A DNA stretch of 62,910 nucleotides, filler included, from Rhabdomonas costata (taxonomy: Eukaryota), in assembly GCA_019059605.1 (NCBI GenBank). It is 29 parts of 29 records of this genome, joined end to end, with 100 filler letters (N's around TTAATTAATTAA, not from the genome) between each part and the next. Parts side by side here need not be neighbours in the genome. Positions count along the whole stretch, not along the records: positions 8,696 to 10,769 come from JAHMHO010005864.1; 28 more parts are not named here. One strand, 5' to 3'. How positions within the stretch are numbered: position 1 is the stretch's first letter; each line of letters begins with the position of its first letter. A program made the translations under genes and the position numbers. Of this stretch, positions 9,722-10,500 are shown piece after piece. The notes under the pieces were generated by a model, which worked only from the letters and a program-made list of their open reading frames with translations, was not told where the DNA came from and did no database searches.

Positions 9722-10500
9722 AGAAGACTCGAGAGCGCAGATGATCACCAGAGCGTTCACGATGCTGTTCGCGAGACAGGTGTCCGAAGATCCCGACTTC
9801 ATGCGCTTAGGTGCGAAGCAAGAGAAGAATCAGGCAGATCCCGACATCTCATGCTTTTGAAACTTTAGTATCTCGGTCAGAAAATCAGCGAACGGGTGGT
9901 GTGGCGCGCGTCTGAGGAACAGCTCGTATGCCTTGAGGACAGCTTTGTGGGCCTGCGGGATGTGATGGAATCAAAATTCGTCGTGTCAAAGGAAATGACT
10001 TCATACCCCGCAGGAATTTTAGCCCACCACGCTTGAAGATCGGTATGAGTCTTGCCAGCCGCGAAGATGTTGTGGCGCAGGGCATGTTCAAAAGTCACCT
10101 GCATGGAATAGATGAAAGGCCCAAGGAAGAAGGTGCTCAGAGGCTCCATACCCAATATACACCTGGCCCTGAAGGACTTCGTCAAAACTGCATGCCACAT
10201 TGTGGCTCACTGAGGGAGGCCTTGGCCTTGAGTCGCTTGATGTATGCCATAGCGAGACCCCGCAGCTCACCCAGCTTCTCTCCAGCTTGTTAGCGGAGCT
10301 GATACCCGAAAGTGACAACCACTCCTCCAAAAGGTCAAATGCTCACGCAGGAAGTCAAAATGGGACTCCAAGCGGCGTCCACTGGTTTTGGGGTGGCCTT
10401 CAGCGCGCGCTCACACATAGCGGCTCGCATCGGCTCGACGCCATCGTGAGCAGTGACTCTCAGAAATTGTGGAGTATGAAGGCTAGATGAAGCCGACCAT
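9722..10500 (-). pseudogene. Endogenous viral element: degenerate RNA-dependent RNA polymerase of a (+)ssRNA virus
   Basis: Minus strand reads KSFRARCILGMEPLSTFFLGPFIYSM...FAAGKTHTDLQAWW...VISFDTTNFDS (motif F; motif A DxxxFD at 9987-9970). After a frameshift near 9965 it continues IPQAHKAVLKAYELF...GSA*FFSCFAPKRMKSGSSDTCLANSIVNAL (motif B at 9805-9755). Upstream frameshifted pieces read MRAAMCERALKATPKPVDAAW and LEEWLS. Confidence 0.82.

Follow-up and report, generated by a model that had tools for sequence, protein, structure and literature searches.

We found that the minus strand of one short contig in the Rhabdomonas costata assembly carries a fragment derived from the RdRp gene of a positive-strand RNA virus, running from near the N-terminus of the protein to just beyond motif B. 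We consider it probable that this fragment is a dead DNA copy (a pseudogene) of the N-terminal two thirds of such a gene and that it was truly inserted into the DNA of the eukaryote that was sequenced.

The window, that is, the whole stretch of 62,910 nt analyzed here, is composed of 29 unplaced contigs of 2,059 to 2,079 nt each, the last of which is clipped by the window end. They are separated by 28 identical, artificial linkers of 100 nt (44 N, TTAATTAATTAA, and 44 N), and since the contigs were joined artificially, the neighborhood across any linker carries no meaning. The RdRp-bearing contig has no sequence in common with the other 28 contigs of the window. The contig and its viral part are as follows.

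8696..10769, no strand assigned: RdRp-bearing contig, unplaced, 2,074 nt, with linkers at 8596-8695 and 10770-10869
9722..10763, minus strand: RdRp-derived region, spread over all three minus frames and covering positions 23-393 of 595 in the family profile (residues 6-366 of 577 in the relative P0002)

Homology of the fragment to viral RdRps

The 83-aa piece encoded at 9722-9970, with its TGA read through, was searched by phmmer against 1.84 billion proteins, which yielded five matches at E <= 0.001. Four of these (P0002 to P0005, E values of 1.2e-6 to 1.5e-4) are true RdRps of 530 to 601 aa, each of which passes the curated cut-off of Pfam RdRP_1 or RdRP_2. The top match, P0001, was dropped, since only 20 residues were matched in what is a repeat protein of low complexity, 2,624 aa long. 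When the four RdRps were used as tblastn queries against the window, the matches, with E values of 2.4e-20 to 2.7e-27, were confined to the minus strand of 9722-10743, and everything else had an E value of at least 0.26. Matches of viral loci elsewhere in the window in tblastx (35 rows of at most 32 bits) were rejected as sum-statistic or low-complexity artefacts.

All 29 contigs were translated in six frames and searched with an HMM built from ten family members. The HMM matched the three minus frames of the RdRp contig at E values of 9e-30, 7e-20, and 1e-5, collinear over about 370 profile positions, and gave E values of at least 0.31 on all the other 28 contigs, with no second copy in the window. 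Furthermore, a frameshift-aware alignment of P0002 residues 6-366 to positions 10757-9731 showed 43.6% identity across 321 residues, with a score of 408 versus 43 to 57 for five control queries (one reversed and four shuffled).

The open pieces taken separately behaved differently: seven of them matched nothing in Pfam, nothing was found in the PDB, a word-based search for longer proteins came back empty, and no relative was confirmed when viral contigs were scanned for the patterns of single pieces. A direct RdRp HMM match on the pieces thus fails, and the relatives are required as a bridge. These blank searches are what one would expect if short motifs resembled an RdRp by chance. This explanation is refuted by the collinear family HMM match, by tblastn E values down to 3e-27, and by the gap between the real and the control alignment scores. 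The preliminary description had proposed an RNA-virus RdRp palm on the minus strand, and the HMM, tblastn, and shuffle controls place that resemblance far above chance; a profile match was obtained with the family HMM on the fragment, and none for single pieces against Pfam and the PDB.

The following elements were located in the fragment.

10573..10728, minus strand: N-terminal Cys-rich block (CxxC ... CFFC), conserved in the family, with CFFC at 10584-10573
10102..10173, minus strand: second half of a motif-F-like segment, matching the family consensus GFxARLIxGMEPxITAxTGPFIA
10173-10150, minus strand: FRARCILG
10128-10102, minus strand: FLGPFIYSM
10062-10048, minus strand: AAGKT
9970..9987, minus strand: motif A, DTTNFD, with D282 and D287 invariant among the family columns
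9830..9832, minus strand: in-frame TGA, between motifs A and B, in a block that aligns well
9755..9799, minus strand: motif B, KSGSSDTCLANSIVN; a longer version, RMKSGSSDTCLANSIVN, had been given at 9805-9755

Conserved blocks of the family are thus retained in order, namely LPxPF, CxxC...CFFC, the GISxxNK helix region, the second half of the motif-F-like GFxARLIxG segment, FFAAGKT, motif A, and motif B. The last of these keeps every residue that is invariant in the family (K344, S345, G346, T350, C351, N354, and N358). Motif A (DxxxxD) is followed by motif B (SGxxxTxxxN) in the order and at the spacing of viral palm RdRps, which supports the earlier assignment to this class and to neither RTs nor cellular RdRPs. 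The coordinates first reported for the motifs and the TGA all proved exact.

The RdRp ORFs of the family start with a conserved Cys-rich segment (CxxC ... N.CFFC, at about columns 85 to 105 of the family alignment), and the decayed copy still shows it. This segment may bind zinc. The region was modeled poorly, with pLDDT values below 60 across residues 1-130 of the P0002 model.

Decay, truncation, and the surrounding DNA

Six frame changes were inferred from the alignment with P0002, near 10729, 10568, 10476, 10328, 10183, and 9965 (a span of 9965..10729 on the minus strand). Besides the TGA between motifs A and B, this alignment contains a second stop at 10337-10335, and a further one at 10749-10747 depends on how the shifts are placed. 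The lesions were apportioned as six shifts and two stops at a frameshift penalty of 10, five and three at 20, and three and six at 30, giving a total of eight to nine disabling lesions in about 1.03 kb whatever the penalty; with P0004 as the query, ten shifts and two stops were counted. The longest open frame in the fragment is 109 codons. Heavy decay, with a frameshift near 9965 and more upstream, had been noted from the sequence at the outset, and the present alignment located five more shifts and brought the count to at least eight lesions in about 1.03 kb.

T4 runs adjoin three of the six inferred shift sites, so some of the shifts could be sequencing errors. An intact ankyrin ORF of 1,038 nt elsewhere in the window indicates, on the other hand, that assembly indel error does not amount to about six per kb. 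The stop at 9832-9830 is of the substitution type and lies in a conserved block; it is no homopolymer error.

Homology ends about ten codons past motif B, at position 393 of the 595 in the profile. No HMM domain was found on profile positions 394-595 in the contig. When the C-terminal thirds of six relatives were aligned with 8696-9730, the scores were 28 to 42 against shuffle means of 35 to 44, and 15 to 98 of 100 shuffles per query reached the real score (for P0008 the query had been cut wrongly, at residue 163, and the result was negative as well). From the HMM and the shuffle-level scores we conclude that motif C and the thumb are missing: motif C (GDD), invariant in the family, is absent from the fragment, as are motifs D/E. 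A decayed motif C (SDGGL, at about 9685-9671) and FLN- and SGR-like blocks downstream of it had been picked out by eye, and neither the shuffle test nor the HMM supports them. The fragment therefore derives from an RdRp gene but is no polymerase.

The truncated RdRp abuts about 1 kb of non-viral sequence inside the same contig.

8696..9721, no strand assigned: non-viral flank, about 1 kb, on the same contig as the RdRp fragment

This flank showed no similarity to any part of the 26 related viral loci described below (tblastx, E <= 1e-3), and its ORFs matched no Pfam family, with no recognizable gene. The preliminary description had called 8696-9300 AT-rich, which holds for 8760-8999 (30% GC) and not for 9000-9721 (49% GC).

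The composition of the contig was compared by an order-3 Markov log-likelihood ratio with that of 56 one-kb pieces of the other contigs and 51 viral pieces. The flank scored +0.0113, against a mean of +0.0077 (sd 0.007) for the other contigs and -0.0075 (sd 0.0065) for the viral pieces, in a test that is weak, as 10% of the viral pieces score above 0 and 20% of the host pieces below it. The RdRp part was intermediate, at +0.0031. GC content does not discriminate between the sources (53.5% in the fragment, 45 to 55% in the viral relatives, and 43 to 57% in the host contigs), and neither does CpG. Neither a poly(A) tract nor a target-site duplication was found at the fragment, and no retroelement adjoins it, so the mechanism of integration can only be inferred.

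Other contigs of the window look eukaryotic, with an ORF of the ankyrin/F-box-like kind, the RT of a Ty3/gypsy-type element, and an ASH domain. The ankyrin-repeat ORF (74-1111, minus strand) is intact over 345 codons, matches Ank_2 at an E value of 9e-53, and has a weakly F-box-like N-terminus. The RT ORF (53603-54235, plus strand; Pfam RVT_1, E value of 3.4e-19) runs into the contig end, and it shows that a retroelement RT, a possible EVE-forming agent, is present in the assembly. A weak ASH/PapD-like match of the hydin type (E value of 3.4e-5, below the cut-off) was obtained for an ORF at 59799-60503 on the minus strand. An Atlas search with a host ORF of 310 aa returned scores no higher than 0.81, which were uninformative as to the host. 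Rfam and tRNA searches of the window gave no matches, and no DinoSL motif or relic of the dinoflagellate spliced leader was found in the window or in the 26 related viral loci.

Of the 58 contig ends, 8 have an inverted repeat in their last 150 nt, with lengths from 14 nt up to 30 nt or more, and one of these ends is on the RdRp contig. Examples include the following.

8701..8753, no strand assigned: fold-back at a contig end, with arms of 25 nt, 92% complementary, and a loop of 3 nt
10870-11090: start of the next contig in the window
15223-17295, 28264-30336, and 41306-43378: contigs with such repeats at their 3' ends

These repeats look like fold-back artefacts of assembly or library preparation, and the fold-back at 8701-8753 is probably an assembly artefact. 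The contig start at 10870-11090, where (GT)n and (CT)n microsatellites surround an inverted repeat of about 90 nt, is a fold-back-like end too.

Intact relatives and the virus lineage

The intact relatives of the fragment are viral RdRps of 530 to 760 aa, which form a small family seen only in unnamed environmental contigs. Word-based and profile searches yielded 8 and 12 of them, respectively, none named beyond "hypothetical protein" and none from an NCBI source, and pattern scans yielded 20 viral-contig loci and six metagenome loci. The suggestion that the lineage is probably unassigned thus agrees with the lack of a named relative in the searches run. In a maximum-likelihood tree of 27 rows and 539 columns, for which each break in the fragment was bridged with an X, the fragment fell into a five-row clade with P0002, P0007, P0004, and P0005 (support 100/100). 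Its end branch measured 1.28 versus 0.36 to 0.94 for its sisters. This nesting and the long end branch identify the fragment as a decayed offshoot of a group otherwise known as intact.

A common gene layout was recognized among the relatives. In all six loci examined that have an upstream ORF, this ORF1 (387 to 1,554 codons as present in the contigs) ends in a single TGA, after which the RdRp ORF (583 to 751 codons) follows in frame. The TGA between ORF1 and RdRp lies at the following positions.

L021, 1162-1164
L002, 1255-1257
L004, 3697-3699
L006, 3437-3439
L008, 5043-5045
L019, 8217-8219

One in-frame stop separates the two ORFs in L014, and the RdRp of L010 is in a different frame. From this arrangement, the RdRp of the relatives looks to be made by programmed UGA read-through. 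The layout is seen in the relatives only; the fragment begins downstream of the read-through site. Their ORF1 matched no Pfam family, with the exception of L008, and no poly(A) ends were found on their contigs. In L008, a relative of 10 kb, residues 329-372 of ORF1 (381-5042, plus strand) match the RING finger zf-RING_2 at an E value of 5.4e-7, which is unusual for a replicase-associated protein of an RNA virus; two more ORFs, without a Pfam family, lie downstream of its RdRp.

Predicted structures of the intact relatives point to the tombus-like viruses. Structure neighbors of the family in the Atlas belonged to Kitrinoviricota in nine of ten rows, with feature rows mixing Kitrinoviricota and Pisuviricota. 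An AlphaFold model of P0002 (pLDDT 73.7, pTM 0.75) found its best matches in BFVD, a collection of predicted viral structures, among unnamed Riboviria, and the named ones were mostly Tombusviridae or tombus-like (Tolivirales) at 12 to 20% identity, including maize chlorotic mottle virus, soybean yellow mottle mosaic virus, groundnut rosette virus, Beihai tombus-like virus 6, and Leptomonas pyrrhocoris RNA virus. Among solved RdRps, the family profile matched poliovirus 3Dpol across motifs A to C (E value of 8e-10), and the P0002 model matched poliovirus 3Dpol and the enzymes of norovirus, BVDV/CSFV (NS5B), HCV (NS5B), and Jingmen tick virus at E values of 1e-8 to 9e-11; with TM values of at most 0.53 and 10 to 15% identity, these matches reflect the generic right-hand RdRp fold only. 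By sequence, the picorna-like RdRP_1 was the best Pfam family in three of four relatives and RdRP_2 in one, with RdRP_3 not best-scoring, which leaves the phylum less clear by sequence profile. A distant relative, P0014, carries a chroparavirus-type methyltransferase together with RdRP_3. Taken together, the models suggest that the lineage is probably tombus-like and belongs to Kitrinoviricota, in agreement, at the phylum level, with the tombus/noda-like placement proposed at the start.

In tombusviruses (p33/p92), the RdRp is produced by read-through of the stop of an upstream ORF, and that stop is UAG. The relatives resemble them in that their RdRp would likewise arise by read-through of an upstream stop, and they differ in that this stop is TGA in six of six loci and follows an ORF1 of 925 to 1,554 aa without a Pfam family (L008 aside). 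Another group that invites comparison is the weiviruses, the "Weivirus" group of Shi et al. 2016, which is placed in unclassified Riboviria. They are described as an orphan clade of aquatic positive-strand RNA viruses that is grouped with tombus- and nodaviruses in Branch 3 (bioRxiv 10.1101/451740), and weivirus-like viruses are stated to be related to alveolate EVEs (PMC9651163). By these descriptions, weiviruses resemble the lineage of the fragment in being an orphan clade of positive-strand RNA viruses near tombus-like viruses.

RNA-virus EVEs have already been documented in protists, notably in dinoflagellates, and the fragment is the same kind of object. Insertions of dinoRNAV and weivirus-like RdRp and MCP genes are known from Symbiodiniaceae genomes, where, as these sources describe them, the RdRp is fragmentary and interrupted by frameshifts and stops, often lies close to retroelements on scaffolds that are short or carry a single gene, and the copies are judged to be pseudogenes (PMC10235124; PMC9651163). 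The fragment resembles those described elements in being a partial RdRp in DNA, frameshifted, with internal stops, and on a short contig. It differs in its affinities: the dinoflagellate EVEs, in the same accounts, belong to Alvernaviridae (Sobelivirales) or match weivirus-like viruses, whereas the relatives of the fragment have the ORF1-TGA-RdRp order and tombus-like structural neighbors. Again by description, the layout of the relatives is unlike the protease-RdRp polyprotein of dinoRNAVs, and no protease or capsid Pfam match was found in them. What is new here is the lineage, with ORF1-UGA-RdRp and a tombus-like structure, which is without a named relative in the searches run.

Origin and meaning of the copy

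An RNA virus is not expected in a DNA assembly. The fragment is homologous to an RNA-virus gene, from a virus without a DNA stage, and its disabling mutations and long end branch fit neutral decay as DNA, both of which are features of a non-retroviral EVE. According to the explanation we favor, the RT of a retroelement would have copied viral RNA into DNA, which would then have entered the genome of the eukaryote that was sequenced. Truncation would have occurred either at insertion, through a template switch, or later, through a deletion, and the copy would since have been drifting neutrally, unable to make a polymerase.

A genuine decayed RdRp insertion could also belong to a co-sequenced eukaryote (prey, symbiont, or contaminant), in which case nothing would be learned about the nominal host. 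The contig agrees with this in being a 2-kb unplaced scrap among such scraps, sharing no sequence with the other 28, but the flank scores on the side of the other contigs in the composition test (+0.0113 versus a mean of +0.0077), which cannot separate related eukaryotes; we hold this origin to be unlikely. Quite unlikely, in our judgment, is an assembly artefact, that is, a chimeric or error-laden contig in which reads of an exogenous virus, from cDNA or RNA carry-over, were fused to unrelated sequence. The inverted repeats at 8 of 58 contig ends, this contig included, the abrupt end of homology at about 9722, the T4 runs next to three of six shift sites, and a fragment GC content equal to that of the viral relatives all speak for such a fusion. 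It is difficult to reconcile, however, with the substitution-type stop in a well-aligned block, with eight to nine lesions per kb against an intact 1,038-nt ankyrin ORF, with an end branch longer than that of any sister, with a fragment composition shifted toward the host, and with the unexpected presence of an RNA virus in a DNA assembly.

It is very improbable that the EVE has been domesticated and still functions, be it as a protein or by giving rise to antiviral small RNAs. Small RNAs from EVEs are known in arthropods and, in the part of the literature that treats dinoflagellate EVEs, have been proposed for these as well (PMC10235124), but the fragment has no open frame longer than 109 codons, lacks the catalytic motif C, and has no inverted duplication in the contig that would provide a hairpin. 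Any present role of the copy, for example as a small-RNA template, is speculation.

On the favored reading of a decayed insertion in the sequenced eukaryote, we propose tentatively, at somewhat less than even chances, that the fragment, as a true germline insertion, gives an orphan tombus-like clade characterized by ORF1-UGA-RdRp and a Cys-rich RdRp N-terminus its first host anchor and a minimum age. The value of this finding is moderate, because RNA-virus EVEs of protists have been documented already and because the copy lies on a 2-kb unplaced contig, so that its link to the host is a probable one. To our knowledge, most RNA-virus lineages discovered by metatranscriptomics are without a known host. 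Among the few clues to a host that can be obtained from sequence alone is a decayed DNA copy in the genome of a eukaryote, and such a copy also marks the association as old. The clue obtained here concerns a clade of about two dozen environmental relatives without a name. If the proposal is true, the sequenced protist lineage is, or once was, a host of this clade, of which nothing but unnamed environmental contigs has been seen so far.
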